This document shows positions 14,981-57,238 of a stretch of DNA of 64,000 nucleotides, piece by piece. Under the pieces are notes generated by a model, which did no database searches, was not told the origin of the DNA, and worked only from the letters and a program-made list of their open reading frames with translations. The DNA lies in NCBI GenBank assembly GCA_964599615.1, contig CAZRGF010000005.1, positions 6,829-70,828 on the forward strand. Reading direction: 5' to 3'. A program made the translations under genes and the position numbers. The stretch comes from Candidatus Woesearchaeota archaeon. Lineage in GTDB: Archaea > Nanobdellota > Nanobdellia > Pacearchaeales > UBA284. Position 1 is the first letter of the stretch; each line of letters begins with the position of its first letter.

Positions 14981-15652
14981 TTATTTTGCTTTTTTCTTCA
15001 TCTCTTTGACATAAGCATCAGCTTTTTTCAAGAATTTTTCATCTATTTCCCTTTTTCCATGTCTTATAGCAAGAATATCGTGGATAATATGCTTTTTGTT
15101 ATTTTTCAATAATTTTCCCATCTCTTCATAGCTTGTTGTGAATGGTTTTTTCATCATTTGTAATTCTGCTCTTGTAAGCATGGAGATATTTTTTAAGAAA
15201 TATTGTGAATAAAACCCATATTTTTTGATATATCTTTCTAGTTTTTTGATTTCAAATCTTAATTCTTGTTTTGCTAAAAAAGGTTTAAGTTTTATTTTGT
15301 CTAAATCTAAATTGCCGTAGACTAATTTTCCTCTTTTCAGGATTTTCAACAGCATTTGTGGAGTGAAAAGATTAATTTTGAATACAAACGTCTCTTTCTT
15401 TCCTTTTCCCATCAAATTTTTGTAGGAAATAGTTCTTAATGCAGTCCTAAACTTATGTTTCTTTGTTAATGTGTCTATAAATCTATATTCCTCTTTTTCG
15501 TCCAAAGGTTTTTTAACTACAGCAAAAAAATCAAGATCATTGAATTTTTTGTCTGATGTAGCAGAGCCGACTAGGTAAAGTGCAATCAGATTGCCTTTTA
15601 GCTTTTTTCTGATATCGTCTGATGTTTTTTTGATTAACAAGTCTTTTTTCAT
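14981..15652 (-). CDS. nucleotidyltransferase-domain protein (KNTase/MNT-like) with helical C-terminal domain
   Basis: LYLVGSATSDKKFNDLDFFAVV (G-S ... D-x-D). Confidence 0.6.
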   Translation of the reverse strand: MKKDLLIKKTSDDIRKKLKGNLIALYLVGSATSDKKFNDLDFFAVVKKPLDEKEEYRFIDTLTKKHKFRTALRTISYKNLMGKGKKETFVFKINLFTPQMLLKILKRGKLVYGNLDLDKIKLKPFLAKQELRFEIKKLERYIKKYGFYSQYFLKNISMLTRAELQMMKKPFTTSYEEMGKLLKNNKKHIIHDILAIRHGKREIDEKFLKKADAYVKEMKKKAK

Positions 15653-15686: not shown

Positions 15687-16322
15687 ATGTTTTTCTGTTC
15701 TATGGACCAAAAAAGAAAAAAAGCAATTCAACAATTAAAAAAACTGAAAAAGTTGGTTGAACATCGCGATGATGTGAGGCTTGCTGCTGATTGGCCTGAA
15801 AAATGGAAAGTCTTGATTTCTACAATCCTTTCTTCACAAACAAAAGATGAAACAACTATTGCAATTTCTAATACGCTTTATAGGAAATATCCCACATTAA
15901 AACACCTTGCTGGGGCATCGTTAAGGGATATTAAGAAGATAATTCGACCAGTTAATTATTATAAAACCAAGGCAAAGCACATTTTATTAACATCCAAGGT
16001 ATTGGTTAATACTTATGGATGCAAGATTCCTTCTGACAGAGAAAAACTTCTAGAACTTCCAGGAGTAGGAAGAAAAGTTGCTAATGTCTATTTAGCTGTT
16101 CAAGGATATCAGACAATTGGTGTTGATACACATATTACTTTTTTAGCTCAAGAACTTGGATGGACAAAGAATAAAAATCCGCATAAGATTGAGAAAGACC
16201 TTGAAGAATTGTTTCCTAAAAAGTATCGAGGTTCAATTAATTACATTCTCGTGAGATTTGGAAGAATTTTCAATACGAAGAAGAAACAGGTGGGGAAGTT
16301 AACGGAAGAGGGGGTAATCTAG
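15687..16322 (+). CDS. HhH-GPD base-excision DNA glycosylase (endonuclease III-like, no obvious Fe-S Cys cluster)
   Basis: ILSSQTKDE, LLELPGVGRKVANVYL and VDTH motifs. The C-terminus lacks the four Cys of Nth. Confidence 0.8.
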   Translation: MFFCSMDQKRKKAIQQLKKLKKLVEHRDDVRLAADWPEKWKVLISTILSSQTKDETTIAISNTLYRKYPTLKHLAGASLRDIKKIIRPVNYYKTKAKHILLTSKVLVNTYGCKIPSDREKLLELPGVGRKVANVYLAVQGYQTIGVDTHITFLAQELGWTKNKNPHKIEKDLEELFPKKYRGSINYILVRFGRIFNTKKKQVGKLTEEGVI

Positions 16323-16395: not shown

Positions 16396-16884
16396 ATGGT
16401 ACAAATAAATACCTTATTAAAAGAAGGCAAGATAAGCAGAATTGGCGAGTTTGAAATAGGCAGGTACATAAATTTCTTTGAAAATTCTTATCAAGATAAT
16501 CTAGAGCATTGCAAAAAGAATATTGGGGAGTTTCCAAGATGGAGCATAATCTCTGGTTACTACGCTATGCATGATATAACTAAATTACTATTTGTCAAAA
16601 AATTTAGAATAAAAGTTGATTTTGAAGTTCATGCAACAACCATAAAACTTTTGCAAGAGCTTATAAAAAACAAAGAATTGTTCAATCTTATTGAAATAGG
16701 ATATAAGGAATTTTTATCTTTAGCAAATGATTTAACTGAAGCAAAAAAAGACAGGACAAAAGTTCAGTATTATACTGGGACCAAATTTTTGAAAGGGGAG
16801 TATGGAAAAAGAGCAAACCAGTTTTACAGCAAAATAGTCTTGGTGTATATAGAAAAAATAAAAAGACTTTTGGCAGAAAAATGA
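16396..16884 (+). CDS. HEPN-domain protein
   Basis: WSIISGYYAMHDITKLLFVKKF helix typical of HEPN. Putative R-x4-H site reads DRTKVQYY (His replaced). ATGA overlap with the MNT gene. Confidence 0.55.
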   Translation: MVQINTLLKEGKISRIGEFEIGRYINFFENSYQDNLEHCKKNIGEFPRWSIISGYYAMHDITKLLFVKKFRIKVDFEVHATTIKLLQELIKNKELFNLIEIGYKEFLSLANDLTEAKKDRTKVQYYTGTKFLKGEYGKRANQFYSKIVLVYIEKIKRLLAEK

Positions 16885-17438
16885 TTGAGTTATTTGATTT
16901 AAATGTCTTGAAGATATTGACTGTTTTTTCAGTATCTCCTGGTTCCAGATTTACTCGGAAGGCGATAAAAGAAAAGACAAATATGCCCAATGTAGTTTTG
17001 GATAAACATCTTGCAAAACTGCTCAATCTTAAAATTTTGGCCAAGGTGAGAAACTTTCTAATTCTAAATTTCAAAAACAATGAGATAAAACCAATTATAA
17101 ACGCAGTCTCCGAACAATATACTTACTTCAGACAACTCCCCCTAAAAGATTATTTTTTAGTTTTAAATATAAAAGATGAATTGCTTAAAACAAAAAATCT
17201 TTTAAACGTTTATCTTTTCGGCAGTTATGCCAAGCTTATTTTTAAGGAAAATTCAGATATGGATCTAGCGATTATCTCCAAAGAAATAAATAAGAAGGAT
17301 GTTGAAAAAATTATAAGAAAAGTGGAAAAAAGATACAAGAAGAATATAGAAGTTCATTACTTCTCAGATAATTTTTATAACAATAAACGGGACCCTCTTG
17401 TGAAAGAAATTCTGCAGCACGGCATCATGATGATTTGA
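16881..17438 (+). CDS. wHTH plus minimal nucleotidyltransferase (MNT) protein
   Basis: VYLFGSYAKLIFKENSDMDLAIIS (G-S ... D-x-D), with an N-terminal wHTH-like segment. Confidence 0.65.
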   Translation: MIELFDLNVLKILTVFSVSPGSRFTRKAIKEKTNMPNVVLDKHLAKLLNLKILAKVRNFLILNFKNNEIKPIINAVSEQYTYFRQLPLKDYFLVLNIKDELLKTKNLLNVYLFGSYAKLIFKENSDMDLAIISKEINKKDVEKIIRKVEKRYKKNIEVHYFSDNFYNNKRDPLVKEILQHGIMMI

Positions 17439-17487: not shown

Positions 17488-17904
17488 TCACCTAGAGCCT
17501 GTAAAGAGATATAATTTGGGATTTCCTAATGAACCAAGCCTGTAGGGGTCTAAAAACTCCAGCAAGTTATGTTTCATTGTTTCAAGATCTGTTTGCAATT
17601 CTTCTAAATTAATCACCGAATTATGCGGTTGTTCGCACCAAGAAATATCATATCCTATAAATTGGCCTTTAAGTTGTAGTTCTTTTTCTCCTACCTTGAA
17701 TGTTGGGTCATTTATCTTGGACACCATAAAATTAAAATCCTCTCTTTTTTGGGTTTTAACAATCTTAGATATTATTGATTCTATTAGTTCAGTAAGCACT
17801 TCTTTTTCATTTTCTCTCAATGAAATCCGATGAGAAACATCCTCGGATAATTCATACCCATAGGCAAGGGATGCATAACCTTTGATGTCTTCTAAATCAG
17901 TCAT
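17488..17904 (-). CDS. ORFan operon protein D (138 aa)
   Basis: Last gene of a four-gene coupled operon. No motif recognised. Confidence 0.55.
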   Translation of the reverse strand: MTDLEDIKGYASLAYGYELSEDVSHRISLRENEKEVLTELIESIISKIVKTQKREDFNFMVSKINDPTFKVGEKELQLKGQFIGYDISWCEQPHNSVINLEELQTDLETMKHNLLEFLDPYRLGSLGNPKLYLFTGSR

Positions 17905-18005
17905 CTTTCTTGTTCCTCCATCTTTATTTTGAAAAGCTTCTCATCTTGTTCAAATTTTTCTTCAATTTCTTTATCTTCAACATGATTTTTGGTTTGTTTT
18001 TTCAT
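17901..18005 (-). CDS. ORFan operon protein C (34 aa, acidic)
   Basis: Not in the track. MKKQTKNHVEDKEIEEKFEQDEKLFKIKMEEQER exactly bridges genes B and D by ATGA overlaps at both ends. Confidence 0.4.
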   Translation of the reverse strand: MKKQTKNHVEDKEIEEKFEQDEKLFKIKMEEQER

Positions 18006-19048
18006 TTTCTTTCCACCATTTTAGCAACTGTACCAAAAACCTCGGTGAGAATATCTGGCTTGAATTGTCCCCCCAGTTTATAGAATTCCGAAAGTCTTTT
18101 CAATTTACCAGGTAAACAATAATCTTCTGAAATACCATAAATATTTTCTCTTCGTAAATATCCCATGGGGCACACTCCTGCGAAAAAAAGTGCTTGAATG
18201 TCATCTTTTTTTGGGTCAAATCCCGCAATATCAATTAATTTTTCTCTTACTACTTTGCCCAATTCTGGTAACTTTCCTTCTCTTTCTAACTTTCTTATAA
18301 TTGCTTTTGAATTAAGATATTGCTTAAGTCGCTTATCTTTCTTTACTTCTTCAAAAAGTACCCATTCAGGAAAATTTCCAGAAAGATAACTACCTTGAAG
18401 GTCTTTCGCTCTTTGTCTTGGAAGATCATAAACTGGCTCCCTATCTTTGTCTAAGACTATTTCATTAAGAGGTACTTGTATGTCGCATGAAAATTGTACT
18501 CTGAAATCTTTAGGTTTTAAAAATTCTCTAAAGAGTTTCTTAACACGTCTTTGAGTGATGTACCCGAACAAACGCATTTTTTTCCCAGTGTGACTGTCTA
18601 TTCCAACACTACCAGTAATTCTTTCTCCTACTCTTTTTTCCATTTTTTCTTGGAAAATATTCTGGGGGTATATCCAATCATATTTTAATGACAATGAACC
18701 TCCTTTATCCCATCTTTTAGCATTATAAATATCGTTACAATCGGGGTCATGAGGTCTCAATAAAGAAAAATATGAAACTAGTTGCCTAAGTTGTCTGCCT
18801 TTAATTGTTATCCTTCTTCTTTTTGTTCCTAGTTTTAAGTCTAGTGAAATAGAATCTAGATGATATCTTGCGTTAATTTCATAAACTAAATTTTCAGGAT
18901 TAACTGGATGATAACCACTGCGATAACGCTCTTGAAACACAGTCCATTCAGTTAATCCTCTTCCATATTCGACATTGAGTGTGGCATTCGCCTTTGCACT
19001 TTTAATTTGCCAGACGTCTGTTTTTTGTTCTAAGGTTGTTTTTGTCAT
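18002..19048 (-). CDS. ORFan operon protein B (~348 aa)
   Basis: Start moved to the ATG preceded by GGGAGGAAAG, which gives an ATGA overlap with gene A. No motif recognised. Confidence 0.6.
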   Translation of the reverse strand: MTKTTLEQKTDVWQIKSAKANATLNVEYGRGLTEWTVFQERYRSGYHPVNPENLVYEINARYHLDSISLDLKLGTKRRRITIKGRQLRQLVSYFSLLRPHDPDCNDIYNAKRWDKGGSLSLKYDWIYPQNIFQEKMEKRVGERITGSVGIDSHTGKKMRLFGYITQRRVKKLFREFLKPKDFRVQFSCDIQVPLNEIVLDKDREPVYDLPRQRAKDLQGSYLSGNFPEWVLFEEVKKDKRLKQYLNSKAIIRKLEREGKLPELGKVVREKLIDIAGFDPKKDDIQALFFAGVCPMGYLRRENIYGISEDYCLPGKLKRLSEFYKLGGQFKPDILTEVFGTVAKMVERK

Positions 19049-20070
19049 TTTCTTTCCTCCCGGAGATAGAAAGCAATCTGAGTCCAAAGTCGATCATTTG
19101 GATGCCCATCTAGTCTACCATAAACTTTATTGCTTCCCCAATTAGATTTTGAAATATGTGCTCTTTCGGCTATAGTCGCAACTTCCCTAAATCCTGGAAC
19201 AATTTGTCTAACAATGCAATCTTTAAGTGTAGCCCTAAACATTCGATCCTTTTTCTTCTGTGATCTATGGTCCTTTTCTTTTTTATCTGGACTTAAAGGT
19301 AATTCAATATCTTCTCTAGTGTAGTAAGGACAACTTTGAAGTTTATCGTGTTTTTCGAATTGTTTGGAATGTATCACAATATTTTTTTCACGAGCAATAC
19401 TACAATAAGAATATACATATGCATTATAATATGCTAAGGGATTTCCTACAAAATCCCTAAAGCATTCGGTTTGAGCTCCTCTCAAAAGAATTTCTATTCT
19501 TGATGCATTCTCTGGAGTTTTGTCCCTCTTTATTTTTAGGGCAATTGTTGGAGCACCCCAACTTTCTAAAGAATCTCTATAGTCATAATATGTACCTTCA
19601 AAAACCCGATAAAATTCTTCTTCTCTAGATTTTACATCCTCTTTATCTATACCTCTGACTATAACAAAGGTGTATTCCTTTTTCGGGTCTGTGAAAAATC
19701 TGGCTGCACTATTTGAGGTTTTGAGTTTTATATGACTTGTGCCTTTTTTGTTAAAATCATTAACTTTTATTGGAAAAGGCGAATATTCTAAGAAGTACTC
19801 TAGTTCGGGCTGTTTGCGAGGCAAAGTAACAAACTCTCCTTTGCTTGGATTATAAACCGAATTACTTGGTGTTGATGAAAATCCCACTGAAGTTTCTTCA
19901 AGAGTTGAAACACAAGAATGGGCGTTTCCAGTAAAGTCTTGAACAACATTGCAGAGTCCCTTAAATATTCTTTTTGCATCCCCACAATTACTTGCTTTGT
20001 ACAATATGAAAGATTTTTTGGAATCCTTTGTTTTGTTAAGATCTTCTAAAAAGTTAATATCTTGTGTCAT
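19045..20070 (-). CDS. ORFan operon protein A (341 aa)
   Basis: First gene of the operon, of normal amino-acid composition. No motif recognised. Confidence 0.6.
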   Translation of the reverse strand: MTQDINFLEDLNKTKDSKKSFILYKASNCGDAKRIFKGLCNVVQDFTGNAHSCVSTLEETSVGFSSTPSNSVYNPSKGEFVTLPRKQPELEYFLEYSPFPIKVNDFNKKGTSHIKLKTSNSAARFFTDPKKEYTFVIVRGIDKEDVKSREEEFYRVFEGTYYDYRDSLESWGAPTIALKIKRDKTPENASRIEILLRGAQTECFRDFVGNPLAYYNAYVYSYCSIAREKNIVIHSKQFEKHDKLQSCPYYTREDIELPLSPDKKEKDHRSQKKKDRMFRATLKDCIVRQIVPGFREVATIAERAHISKSNWGSNKVYGRLDGHPNDRLWTQIAFYLREERK

Positions 20071-20085
20071 TTTGGTTTGTGTTTA

Positions 20086-20114
20086 ATTTACTATTATTTA
20101 CTATTTGATAGTAA
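20086..20114. promoter_or_regulatory. operator-like repeats in divergent promoter region
   Basis: Direct repeat ATTTACTATT x2 (20086-20105) overlapping the palindrome TTACTAT-ttg-ATAGTAA (20098-20114), between operon A-D and the Lrp-like gene. Confidence 0.4.
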
Positions 20115-20202
20115 CACATAGAAAAAGGGGTTAATATAATTTTCTTTAGAAACTCTTGTCAAAATGAAAAGATTTAAATAATATAATTGATTATGACAAA
20201 AT

Positions 20203-21201
20203 ATGGTGAATGAAGTCAAGAAAAATAAAACTGAAGGAATAAAGCTCGACGGAAAAGATTGGAAGATATTGAATCAATTAGACTTGAATTCAAGGCAATC
20301 AGATTCTGAGATTGGCAAAAAGACGAGAATTTCGAAGCAAGTTGTCAATTACAGGATAAAGAAATTAGAGGAAGATGGAGTTATACTTGGATTTTTTCCA
20401 CACATAAATGTTCCGAAACTTGGTTATCTGACGCACAAAATATATTTAAGATTCAGGTCATTGAATAAGCAAAATGAAGAGGAAATCCTTAATTATCTGA
20501 AAAAACAAGAAAAAATAGTCTGGGTTATACTATGTTCTGGCAGATGGGACTTGATTTTCGGTGTTGCTTCTGAAAGCATTTCTGAATTTGACAAAGTTCT
20601 TGATGGTTTTATGAACTTGTATAGTGAATTTGTTGCTGAAAGAGGGATTTCTGTTTTTAACAAAGCAACGATACACCACAGAAAATGGCTTATTGATGAT
20701 AAAAATGAGGTTTCTTGGAAACTTGGAGGCAAAAAAGAAGAGATTGATGAAATAGATAGAAAAATACTTGTTGAACTTGAAAAAAATGCTCGAGTTTCTG
20801 TTATTGACATGGCTGAAAAAGCAAGAATTTCTTCAACACTTGTTATCCAAAGAATAAAAAAATTAAGAGAAAAAGATGTTATTGGTGCATTTAGATTAAG
20901 TTTGAACAGGGAAAAACTTGGAATTCATTATTGCAAAGCTTTTATTTATTATCAAAATAAAACCACTGAAAAAGAAGAAAAGCTTTTGAAATATGTTTAT
21001 TCCCTAAATGAAATACTCGGCGTTTCAAAATCAATAGGTTCATGGGATCTTGAATTAGAGTTTGAAGTCAAGAGTTATGATGATTTCCATAAAATCATGA
21101 AGGAATTAAAGAATAAGTTTGATATTATCTCCAGTTTTGATACGGGTTATATTGAAAAAGAACTTGGAGAGAGTTTTATGCCTAAAATTCATATGGGGTA
21201 A
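20203..21201 (+). CDS. tandem (duplicated) Lrp/AsnC-family transcriptional regulator
   Basis: Two HTH_AsnC-like segments (DWKILNQLDLNSRQSDSEIGKKTRISKQVVNYRIKKLEEDGVI and DRKILVELEKNARVSVIDMAEKARISSTLVIQRIKKLREKDVI), each followed by a RAM-like domain. Confidence 0.8.
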   Translation: MVNEVKKNKTEGIKLDGKDWKILNQLDLNSRQSDSEIGKKTRISKQVVNYRIKKLEEDGVILGFFPHINVPKLGYLTHKIYLRFRSLNKQNEEEILNYLKKQEKIVWVILCSGRWDLIFGVASESISEFDKVLDGFMNLYSEFVAERGISVFNKATIHHRKWLIDDKNEVSWKLGGKKEEIDEIDRKILVELEKNARVSVIDMAEKARISSTLVIQRIKKLREKDVIGAFRLSLNREKLGIHYCKAFIYYQNKTTEKEEKLLKYVYSLNEILGVSKSIGSWDLELEFEVKSYDDFHKIMKELKNKFDIISSFDTGYIEKELGESFMPKIHMG

Positions 21202-21219: not shown

Positions 21220-21654
21220 TTATTTACAAGTATACTTCCCATCTACTTCTTTCCAGGATTCTTCAATATCTCGATACCTATTTGTCCTAATTGTTGGTTC
21301 CCTCTTGTGTCTTTCATCATCGATTCTCAACCATCTACAATTATCCATGAATGACCTTCCTTCTGTCCTTTGTTGATTTTGAATTATCCCCCTAGTTAAA
21401 AGAGAACCCGTGTAATAACCCAACATACCAATCACTACGCCAGCTATATAGTCATACCAATCAAGAGGGGATTGATTACTAAGTGATATTATCCCCCCCA
21501 TTGCTGCACCAAAAAGAACACCAGTAGTTGTTCCAACATTATTAGATATTCTCCTTTCTTGTTCACTCTCTCTTACTTCCCGTTCATTTTTTACTTCAAG
21601 AGGAGAGCAGTGTTCATAAATTTGACTGACTAAATTAGTGCACTTTGTTTTCAT
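21220..21654 (-). CDS. hypothetical membrane protein (glycine-zipper)
   Basis: GVLFGAAMGGIISL and IAGVVIGMLGYYTGSLL hydrophobic segments. Confidence 0.5.
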   Translation of the reverse strand: MKTKCTNLVSQIYEHCSPLEVKNEREVRESEQERRISNNVGTTTGVLFGAAMGGIISLSNQSPLDWYDYIAGVVIGMLGYYTGSLLTRGIIQNQQRTEGRSFMDNCRWLRIDDERHKREPTIRTNRYRDIEESWKEVDGKYTCK

Positions 21655-56048: not shown

Positions 56049-56393
56049 ATGACTAAAGAAAAAATTTGTTCAACATCTTGGGCAACACTTGGCTTAGATA
56101 TTAATTTTGAAGCAAAAGATGCCGTTGAGGCAATTGATTTAGTCAAGAGAGTTAATTTTCTTATCGATAATAGTGATGTCTGGTATCAAGGAGAAAAACC
56201 CAGAGCACATATCCATCATGCTAGGGCATCCCAAGAAACAGCTACTGTCATCGATTTTTATGGTCTTGTTGAGATTGGTGAAGATGATAGACCTCTTGCA
56301 TCATCAATTCAACTTTCTTCTTCTGAGAGAAATCGTATTGTGTTCTCTATTGAAGATCAAAAATATTATCTTAATTATGGAGAAATAAGATGA
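56049..56393 (+). CDS. hypothetical protein
   Basis: AGGAG upstream. First of four coupled small ORFs. No motif recognised. Confidence 0.5.
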   Translation: MTKEKICSTSWATLGLDINFEAKDAVEAIDLVKRVNFLIDNSDVWYQGEKPRAHIHHARASQETATVIDFYGLVEIGEDDRPLASSIQLSSSERNRIVFSIEDQKYYLNYGEIR

Positions 56394-56779
56394 AAAGATT
56401 AAGAAAAAAACAAATAGCTCGTAAGATTTTTATAAAAAAACAAATTTTAGAAGAAGCACTTAATCGAGTTAGTGTGAATAGGTTCCAATTTCCTGAAATC
56501 TTGAAACAAATGTGGCGTTCTTTGAACTATGGTCTTCTTGTTCATGATGGGCTTCATAAAGAGGATAGAACAAATTATGAATTAGAATTTGAAAAATATC
56601 TACATGACTGTTGTTACATCAGATTGAAAGGGTTATATAGATTATCATTTGATTCTGGAAAAGACTTTTCTGAAGAAGAAGTGCCTTATGCTGCACAACA
56701 TCTGTTAAGAGAATGGTTTGAGCCTAGAATTAAATATACTTATTTCGCAATTTATCCCCCAATAGAGGTTTTCTTATGA
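56390..56779 (+). CDS. hypothetical protein
   Basis: ATGA overlap with the previous ORF. No motif recognised. Confidence 0.5.
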   Translation: MKRLRKKQIARKIFIKKQILEEALNRVSVNRFQFPEILKQMWRSLNYGLLVHDGLHKEDRTNYELEFEKYLHDCCYIRLKGLYRLSFDSGKDFSEEEVPYAAQHLLREWFEPRIKYTYFAIYPPIEVFL

Positions 56780-57108
56780 TAAAATTAGAATTATTTGAAT
56801 ATCAGGTGAGAAATTCAGAAGAAGCAAAAGTGTTGGAGGAGAGAATGCGAGTGTTTTTAGAAAATTGTTCAATTACAAACGAAAGCGGAATTCCAGTTTC
56901 CCATAGGGGTGTTAGAGTTAGATTTGAAGATTATAATTGGACTAGAAATGAGATGGGAATCGCTGAAGTTTGGGTTTATATTGGTAGTGGTTCTAGCATT
57001 CGTCTAAAAGAAGGTAAAAAAGCAACATTTATTTTTGCGGATCAACAAGCAACTCATTTATCTGTAGAGAATAAAGACTATGGGCTCTTTTATCGTTTAA
57101 ATCCTTAA
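56776..57108 (+). CDS. hypothetical protein
   Basis: ATGA overlap with the previous ORF. No motif recognised. Confidence 0.5.
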   Translation: MIKLELFEYQVRNSEEAKVLEERMRVFLENCSITNESGIPVSHRGVRVRFEDYNWTRNEMGIAEVWVYIGSGSSIRLKEGKKATFIFADQQATHLSVENKDYGLFYRLNP

Positions 57109-57109
57109 A

Positions 57110-57238
57110 ATGAAGAAAATAATACCCCGTACGGATGAATCAGATTGGGTCCATATAAGTGTGAAAGATATACAAGAGAAACTGGAGAAAGGAGAACTGT
57201 TATTCAAGATATCCAGAGACAAATTTCAGGAAACTTGA
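57110..57238 (+). CDS. hypothetical 42-aa protein
   Basis: Not in the track. Starts 1 nt after the previous stop. MKKIIPRTDESDWVHISVKDIQEKLEKGELLFKISRDKFQET. Confidence 0.3.
   Translation: MKKIIPRTDESDWVHISVKDIQEKLEKGELLFKISRDKFQET

Follow-up and report, generated by a model that had tools for sequence, protein, structure and literature searches.

A translationally coupled four-gene operon facing a conserved tandem Lrp/AsnC regulator in a DPANN archaeon

The stretch of DNA analysed here, called the window, is 64,000 nt long (G000:C5:6829-70828) and comes from the genome G000 of a Candidatus Woesearchaeota archaeon of the DPANN group. The genome comprises 1.32 Mb in 51 contigs, with 89% completeness and 33% GC, and is bigger than those of its relatives (0.5-1.0 Mb). 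The window carries four overlapping open reading frames (ORFs), A to D, which face a divergent tandem Lrp/AsnC regulator across a short control region. Positions without a contig name are those of the window. The operon, the regulator and the features between them are as follows.

19045-20070, minus strand: gene A, first gene of the operon, 341 amino acids (aa), isoelectric point (pI) 9.1, soluble, without a Shine-Dalgarno (SD) site
19056-19061, minus strand: GGGAGG, SD-like site for B, within the end of A, 7-nt spacer to the B ATG
18002-19048, minus strand: gene B, 348 aa counted from the ATG, pI 9.6; a TTG further upstream would give 361 aa
17901-18005, minus strand: gene C, 34 aa, acidic, pI 5.3
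17914-17919, minus strand: GGAGGA, SD-like site for D, within C, 9-nt spacer to the D ATG
17488-17904, minus strand: gene D, 138 aa, acidic, pI 4.9
20071-20202: bidirectional control region, 132 bp, between A and the regulator gene
20088-20114: candidate operator O2, TTACTAT at 20088-20094 and 20098-20104 (10-nt spacing) and inverted ATAGTAA at 20108-20114
20156-20199: candidate operator O1, made up of TTGTCAAAATGAA / TTGATTATGACAA, an inverted repeat that encloses the TATA-like box of the regulator
20203-21201, plus strand: tandem Lrp/AsnC regulator, 332 aa, two helix-turn-helix (HTH) and RAM units, divergent from the operon

The genes of the operon are joined by three ATGA overlaps, A/B at 19045-19048, B/C at 18002-18005 and C/D at 17901-17904, exactly where an earlier note on this DNA had placed them. 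The strong GGGAGG that the note assigned to B is also present inside the end of A. The lack of an SD site at A is what one expects of the gene that opens an archaeal mRNA with a short leader or none. With 516 long ORFs of G000 as reference, the codon log-likelihood of the annotated frames is -3.80 to -3.84 (genome mean -3.79, standard deviation 0.07), which places all four ORFs within one standard deviation of the mean, while the remaining five frames score far poorer at -4.1 to -4.6. GC and GC3 are native as well. A to D therefore look like real genes and not shadow frames, which agrees with the earlier note, where low-complexity shadows had been set aside. None of the four contains a hydrophobic or transmembrane segment.

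The regulator shows two complete winged HTH and RAM units in one chain, the domain content of the Lrp/AsnC (feast/famine regulatory protein) family. The Pfam models HTH_24 (E 3.7e-24), HTH_AsnC-type (E 2.2e-20) and AsnC_trans_reg (E 3e-8) match two stretches each, so the tandem-Lrp assignment made from the letters alone holds. The protein is 81% identical to the regulator that faces the one known homolog of B, on another contig (L011, described below), with dN of 0.12, a saturated dS of about 1.5 and dN/dS of about 0.08. Orthologs at 53-77% identity are found in five other metagenome-assembled genomes (MAGs). The control region is identical to that of L011 at 116 of 132 positions (88%), against values of 60% for third codon positions and 52% for fourfold sites in the adjacent regulator gene, and this difference indicates that the whole region is under purifying selection. 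The DNA alignment between G000 and L011 covers the regulator gene and the full intergenic region and ends at position 20070, the first base of the A ATG. The layout of the control region is preserved in four further loci from four other MAGs (L050-L053), six orthologous loci in all. Thus both the regulator and its control region are under strong purifying selection.

Candidate operator O2 has the TATA-like TTATATTA (20132-20139, minus strand) on one side and the A ATG on the other. Its third half-site is one helical turn from the palindrome, over the core promoter of the operon. The operator-like repeats that the earlier note had marked at 20086-20114 contain an exact palindrome, TTACTAT-N3-ATAGTAA, which occurs once in the 1.32-Mb genome against 0.07 expected. 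O2 is identical in L011 and degenerate in L050-L053. O1 consists of a TTGTCA...TGACAA pair that flanks the TATA-like box of the regulator itself (ATTTAAATA, 20172-20180, 22 nt before the regulator ATG), and TTTTGACAA beside this box is retained in all six orthologous loci. Features of both O1 and O2 can be recognised in the orthologous loci. In a search of the same-genus genome G003, the upstream half of the regulator locus was found not to be assembled, and the regulator used as a metagenome query retrieved two short contigs only, neither reaching the payload, as we call the genes behind the regulator. A TTACTAT-TTA-ATAGTAA palindrome is also present at positions 88-116 of L103 (G002:C46), 10 nt before the start of a gene for a membrane-anchored protein of ~190 aa that stands upstream of FEN-1; the operator motif may also be used at other promoters in the genus.

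The homolog of B is P0004 (356 aa), identified at E 3e-7 by an exhaustive HMMER search of 1.84 billion proteins. Pairwise BLASTP aligns residues 3-343 at 26% identity (E 4e-17). At the N-terminus, P0004 can be aligned from its Met1 onwards, in support of a B start at the ATG of 19048. P0004 belongs to the same sample series and a different organism, a related uncultured archaeon, and is absent from G000. On its contig (L011/L101) it likewise faces the tandem-Lrp regulator across the 88%-identical control region, and it is followed by a short ORF, a Fic gene, genes similar to TrbC or pilins of type IV secretion systems (T4SS) and a VirB4/TraC-like ATPase gene. Further along are a UPF0175/PIN-like pair and a restriction-modification system made of a methyltransferase and a ResIII helicase-endonuclease.

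The B homolog in L011 begins at the position equivalent to the A start in G000, and AAAGAAAATGACAAAA upstream of B is common to both, so A is either an insertion in G000 or a deletion in L011. A fills exactly the gap between the control region and the ancestral B start, and it is flanked by a 9-nt direct repeat, AAAATGACA, at 20065-20073 and 19043-19051. C is homologous to the short ORF right after the B homolog (54% over 24 aa), and D occupies the slot held in L011 by the Fic gene. From this comparison, the regulator, the promoter, B and C are taken to be an inherited module and A and D to be orphans. The 12-mer GAAAGAAAATGA, found at the A/B and B/C junctions, was considered as a recombination site and remains unproven; it has 6 copies in the genome, and its 11-mer form has 30 copies against about 4 expected. 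Both AAAATGACA and GAAAGAAAATGA are common start-codon contexts in G000. An integron-like cassette was also rejected: the locus has no integrase, the gene ends have no imperfect inverted repeats and the repeats are start-codon contexts.

Some other features of the L011 contig are worth recording. The VirB4/TraC-like ATPase is 1059 aa long and lies with the TrbC/T4SS-pilin-like genes and Fic at L011:5800-10300 (L101:12435-16900), an arrangement that resembles an island for conjugation-like processes or DNA transfer in a genome of DPANN type. Parts of this island have weak matches in G000 at C11:1646-1900 and C2:37904-38146. A 38-nt sequence (~95% identical) is shared by L011:85-122 and G000 at C5:13-50, C43:13-50 and C23:17-54, with further copies at C47:2873-2910, C17:36780-36817 and C7:54520-54557. 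It stands at several G000 contig ends and at the start of L011, adjoins the C-terminus of an IS200/IS605-like transposase ORF, and is probably an insertion-sequence end that breaks the assembly.

The regulators of L050-L053 are 53-67% identical to that of G000, and each faces different genes.

L050: 296 aa, MazG and 215 aa
L051: 321 and 201 aa
L052: 60 and 154 aa
L053: 193, 155, 74 and 258 aa

BLAST, phmmer and hhalign detect no similarity of these payloads to A, B, D or one another. A match between A and the gene that opens the L051 payload (E 0.006-0.06; probability 2.4% in hhalign) was not accepted as homology. The only Pfam domains in the payload slots are MazG (L050) and Fic. L051 and L052 have regulators that are 84% identical and a helicase gene that is 88% identical, and they also share the control region and the payload gene over its first 8 nt; the DNA between these shared parts is unrelated, 1549 nt long in L051 and 612 nt in L052. 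The genes downstream of the conserved regulator and promoter thus vary among lineages. A divergent ORF is present in 34 of 35 tandem-Lrp loci of DPANN MAGs, and a Pfam domain of any kind is present in only about 7 of the 34 proteins that come first in the payload, a raw count without normalisation to the genomic background. The layout that recurs in the 35 loci is a tandem-Lrp gene, an AT-rich divergent region of ~100-170 nt and a translationally coupled operon without known domains. G000 itself has other tandem-Lrp paralogs: that at C2:100634-104420 faces two radical-SAM genes and a thymidylate-kinase-like gene, that at C13:26652-28437 two overlapping orphan genes (130 and 119 aa), and that at C16:15703-18470 a mini-ORF, a radical-SAM-like gene and a 198-aa orphan.

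No protein of the operon could be assigned to a known family. Searched whole and in segments against Pfam, PHROGs, PADLOC-DB v2 and NCBIfam, A to D give nothing above noise, as the earlier note had anticipated in finding no recognisable motif, and the profiles detect no nuclease, ATPase, nucleotidyltransferase or other effector-type domain in them. A word-indexed search of 5.8 billion proteins retrieves only A, B and D themselves. Six-frame searches of 60 relatives and about 400 genomes of the order find nothing for B or its profile, and for A and D only noise of 14-19 bits in scattered regions, some with stops. Sequence searches of the PDB with A, D and the B profile stay at E > 0.3, IMG/VR viral contigs contain no relative of A or B, and Rfam detects no RNA family across 14-23 kb. 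The four genes had been described as an ORFan set. At the sensitivity used, A and D are true orphans; B has its remote homolog P0004, and C belongs to a family of mini-proteins.

This family has ~50 aa, is specific to the genus and has the core W[IV]H[LI]...E[IV]..K[LI]EKGEKLFK[VI]. Its consensus is MKTLTI..NET...EGIFLVNPTWIHLDEKEIQEKLEKGEKLFKVKVEE, with the signature EGIFLVNPTWIHLDE.EI..KLEKGEKLFKVKVEE. C is a shortened, divergent member without the N-terminal third. The family profile matches C at E 9e-13, and tblastn gives 54-67% identity over 24 aa between C and the copies on contigs C2, C10 and C27 of G000 and the L011 ORF. There are six copies in G000 and 1-6 per genome in the five same-genus comparison genomes, and a single marginal match (E 4.6e-4) among 55 other relatives. 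Copies are located at:

C10:2076-2228, G000
C27:5945-6097, G000
C2:42434-42583, minus strand, G000
C16:16815-16985, G000
57110-57235 of the window: copy of 42 aa, last gene of a second tandem-Lrp/orphan operon (56049-57235)
L086-L096: further copies

Variable columns are distributed 20/11/37 over the first, second and third codon positions, and pS of 0.47-0.78 compares with pN of 0.08-0.17 (pN/pS ~0.2). The family is therefore protein-coding and under purifying selection. Its copies stand directly after (in one case before) unrelated genes, and these genes often belong to payloads of tandem-Lrp or TrmB-type regulators. Between C10 and C27 the copies share 98% identity from AAAATG to TAA and no further; their flanks are unrelated, which suggests gene conversion confined to the ORF. 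At C2:36292-44308 of G000, the 8 kb after a tyrosine-integrase gene contain Fic, one copy of the mini-ORF, an orphan gene of 313 aa and a TrmB-like regulator in divergent orientation. This is a probable integrated element with the order regulator, orphan, mini-ORF and Fic as in L011. Seven family members have no match in Pfam at E <= 10, and there is no match in the PDB. A comparison of C with R1, a translated repeat of this window, showed the two sequences to be unrelated, and C is not a copy of it. Two assignments of the family were also considered and dropped. For SpoVT/AbrB (MazE-type), PF04014 finds five other places in G000 and no mini-ORF, hhalign against those five places gives a probability of 0.4%, and the predicted model is one helix only. 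For a precursor of ribosomally synthesised and post-translationally modified peptides, radical-SAM genes lie beside some copies only (C10, C16, L088 and L089), other copies follow orphan, membrane or Fic-linked genes, and the conserved part is the C-terminal two thirds.

The operon is convergent with a gene pair at 16396-17438, which is not part of it. The earlier note had read this pair as HEPN/MNT. The MNT-type nucleotidyltransferase stands (Polbeta E 6e-11; PADLOC candidate models PDC-M05A at E 5.5e-13 and also PDC-S09), with the MntA model at E 2e-8 and 34 bits against a cut-off of 60, while for its 162-aa partner no HEPN model of Pfam, PADLOC or NCBIfam matches. A second nucleotidyltransferase proposed at 14981-15652 has a weak match (E 0.002), below the cut-off. 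EndoIII (15687-16322) is conserved in four congeners. In G001 it is followed by ~1.7 kb, a GNAT gene and then directly the genes of window 43.2-45.5 kb; in G002, G003 and G005 a different block follows. Thus G001 has nothing at its syntenic site that corresponds to a block of ~27 kb (~16.4-43.1 kb) with the MNT pair, the operon, its regulator, the entire NAD gene array and NrtR, a gene that all five congeners lack. The operon, its regulator and the NAD island therefore lie in accessory DNA, with no equivalent block at any of the syntenic sites examined. The flanks of the operon contain neither an integrase or replication gene nor an att repeat. At 21220-21654 (minus strand), convergent with the regulator and outside the conserved module, is a 144-aa ORF with two glycine-rich hydrophobic segments, a small membrane protein without relatives in the libraries.

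We consider it fairly probable that the locus represents an accessory operon gated by a ligand and set in a conserved socket of regulator and promoter whose payload is replaceable and lineage-specific. The regulator would bind O1 and O2 and hold both promoters shut or gated, and a small ligand at the RAM domains would alter the state of the regulator and release the promoters. A leaderless or short-leader mRNA would begin at A, and at each of the three ATGA overlaps ribosomes would terminate and reinitiate, so passing from A through B and C to D with assistance from the SD sites ahead of B and D. Coupled translation of this kind implies that the four products would be made together in fixed proportion. 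The coupling and the complementary charges suggest that A to D probably form one complex of two basic ~40-kDa proteins (A and B) and two small acidic ones (C and D). In the history of the operon, the 5' end would have gained or lost A, with the break falling exactly in the start-codon context. The surroundings, namely the MazG and Fic genes that fill equivalent slots, the accessory block and the island in which the B homolog lies, point to conditionally expressed genes outside housekeeping, with a role in genetic conflict or in the biology of mobile elements, as the most likely class.

Several points weigh against the socket reading. Regulator binding, ligand gating and complex formation are what we infer from the anatomy of the locus, and the A event may be either an insertion here or a deletion in the relative. 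The payload diversity could equally be fast drift of dispensable genes and not functional exchange. B has one known homolog and A and D have none. PADLOC-DB v2 contains no family for A, B, C or D at E <= 1, and PHROGs gives nothing for them at E < 0.02, so neither the defence link nor the virus-derived role that the earlier note had raised finds a match. The AlphaFold2 model of B, built with its single homolog, is poor (pLDDT 47.8), and the Foldseek comparison that the note had proposed, run with this model, returned a best PDB match at E 0.18 and TM < 0.2, which is meaningless. The model of the C family (14 sequences, pLDDT 66.7) is a single helix, insufficient for a fold search. The locus is found on 7 public contigs of one sample series, all 100% identical, and so offers no variation for selection tests on A, B and D; records that contain it are SRR8437217, SRR8437247, JGI 3300028298 and ENA ERZ272489xx.

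Other explanations have to be weighed against the same observations. The genes might be cargo left behind by a conjugative element, plasmid or virus that had integrated, with functions for example in replication, partition or DNA binding, and might stand next to the regulator by chance. The only B homolog lies beside Fic, TrbC/T4SS-pilin-like, VirB4/TraC-like, restriction-modification and UPF0175/PIN-like genes, the ~27-kb block is absent from congeners, and A and B are basic, all of which fits such cargo. The operon, on the other hand, has native codon usage and GC, no integrase gene, replication gene or att repeat at its flanks, and no PHROG match or IMG/VR relative. The linkage of regulator, promoter, B and C has been kept despite saturated synonymous sites, which argues for an inherited regulated module and not for chance, and we regard cargo as unlikely. 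Somewhat less likely still is an undescribed anti-virus, anti-plasmid or toxin-antitoxin-like module, with acidic C and D neutralising basic A and B and the Lrp-type regulator silencing all of them. Its appeal comes from the complementary charges, the adjoining MNT-type nucleotidyltransferase pair, Fic and MazG in equivalent slots, and the rapid payload turnover behind a conserved regulator, as with BrxR-type regulators (PMC9122601). A to D are, however, negative in PADLOC and lack a detectable nuclease, ATPase, nucleotidyltransferase or effector-type domain, and gene order is not conserved past B-C. The accessory or defence-type island of the earlier note is thus accessory DNA, given the block absent in G001, PADLOC links the operon to no known defence or toxin system, and any defence, toxin or virus role is still the speculation that the note called it.

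The operon could also be an adjunct of the neighbouring NAD-metabolism island, supplying for instance regulators or enzymes of a salvage step. Operon, regulator, NrtR and NAD array are all absent together at the syntenic site of G001, and NrtR is missing from the five congeners. Yet L011 has the regulator-B-C module without NAD genes nearby, and the operon has its own dedicated regulator, a unique operator and no detectable enzyme-like domain, so this connection seems very improbable. That the ORFs are non-functional, either chance frames or decaying genes, is the least credible of these explanations, even with A and D lacking homologs and no confident fold in hand; all four ORFs carry a frame-specific coding signal within one standard deviation of the genome mean, the three ATGA junctions are exact and the SD sites well placed, B is full-length against a homolog at 26% identity, and the C family has pN/pS of ~0.2. 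A bolder extension of the socket reading, which we think doubtful, would make tandem-Lrp genes with their control regions 'expression sockets' for conflict genes in DPANN, A to D a new ligand-gated defence- or toxin-type system with a basic pair restrained by acidic partners, and the C family a shared adaptor.

Local Lrp/AsnC (feast/famine) regulators are transcribed divergently from their targets, as in E. coli AsnC-asnA and archaeal LysM, Ss-LrpB and LrpA. The present locus resembles them in its HTH and RAM domains, divergent arrangement, short shared control region, palindromic AT-rich candidate sites and probable autoregulation. It differs in that two Lrp units are fused in 332 aa and that the presumed targets are orphan, lineage-varying genes and not genes of amino-acid or central metabolism. 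With integron cassettes it has in common a conserved promoter with exchangeable promoterless ORFs, the homology breaking within a few nt of the first start codon; unlike integrons, it has no integrase gene, attI/attC-like sites or cassette array. WYL-domain BrxR-type regulators co-localise with diverse bacterial phage-defence systems, and like BrxR/CapW the regulator family described here is conserved beside many unrelated, fast-changing payloads, often in accessory islands (PMC9122601). Here the fold is Lrp/AsnC and not WYL, no payload is a recognised defence system and the host is a DPANN archaeon, so that the parallel is one of analogy and not of membership. Unlike other tandem-Lrp orphan operons, the module can be dissected at this locus, with B-C apparently inherited, A placed exactly at the start codon, D in the slot that Fic has in L011 and C belonging to the mini-protein family.

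Although the genomes of DPANN archaea are tiny, a large fraction of the genes in them is without known function. This locus indicates that some of the orphan genes are not scattered noise and lie in a defined, conserved regulatory socket. The regulator and its unique operator are amenable to testing in vitro, and the 50-aa mini-protein family offers a target that is small and tractable, occurs across the genus and is subject to purifying selection. The socket could be used as a search key for fast-evolving accessory genes in metagenomes. If the payloads are conflict systems, they would be an archaeal counterpart of the bacterial defence islands that are linked to regulators.

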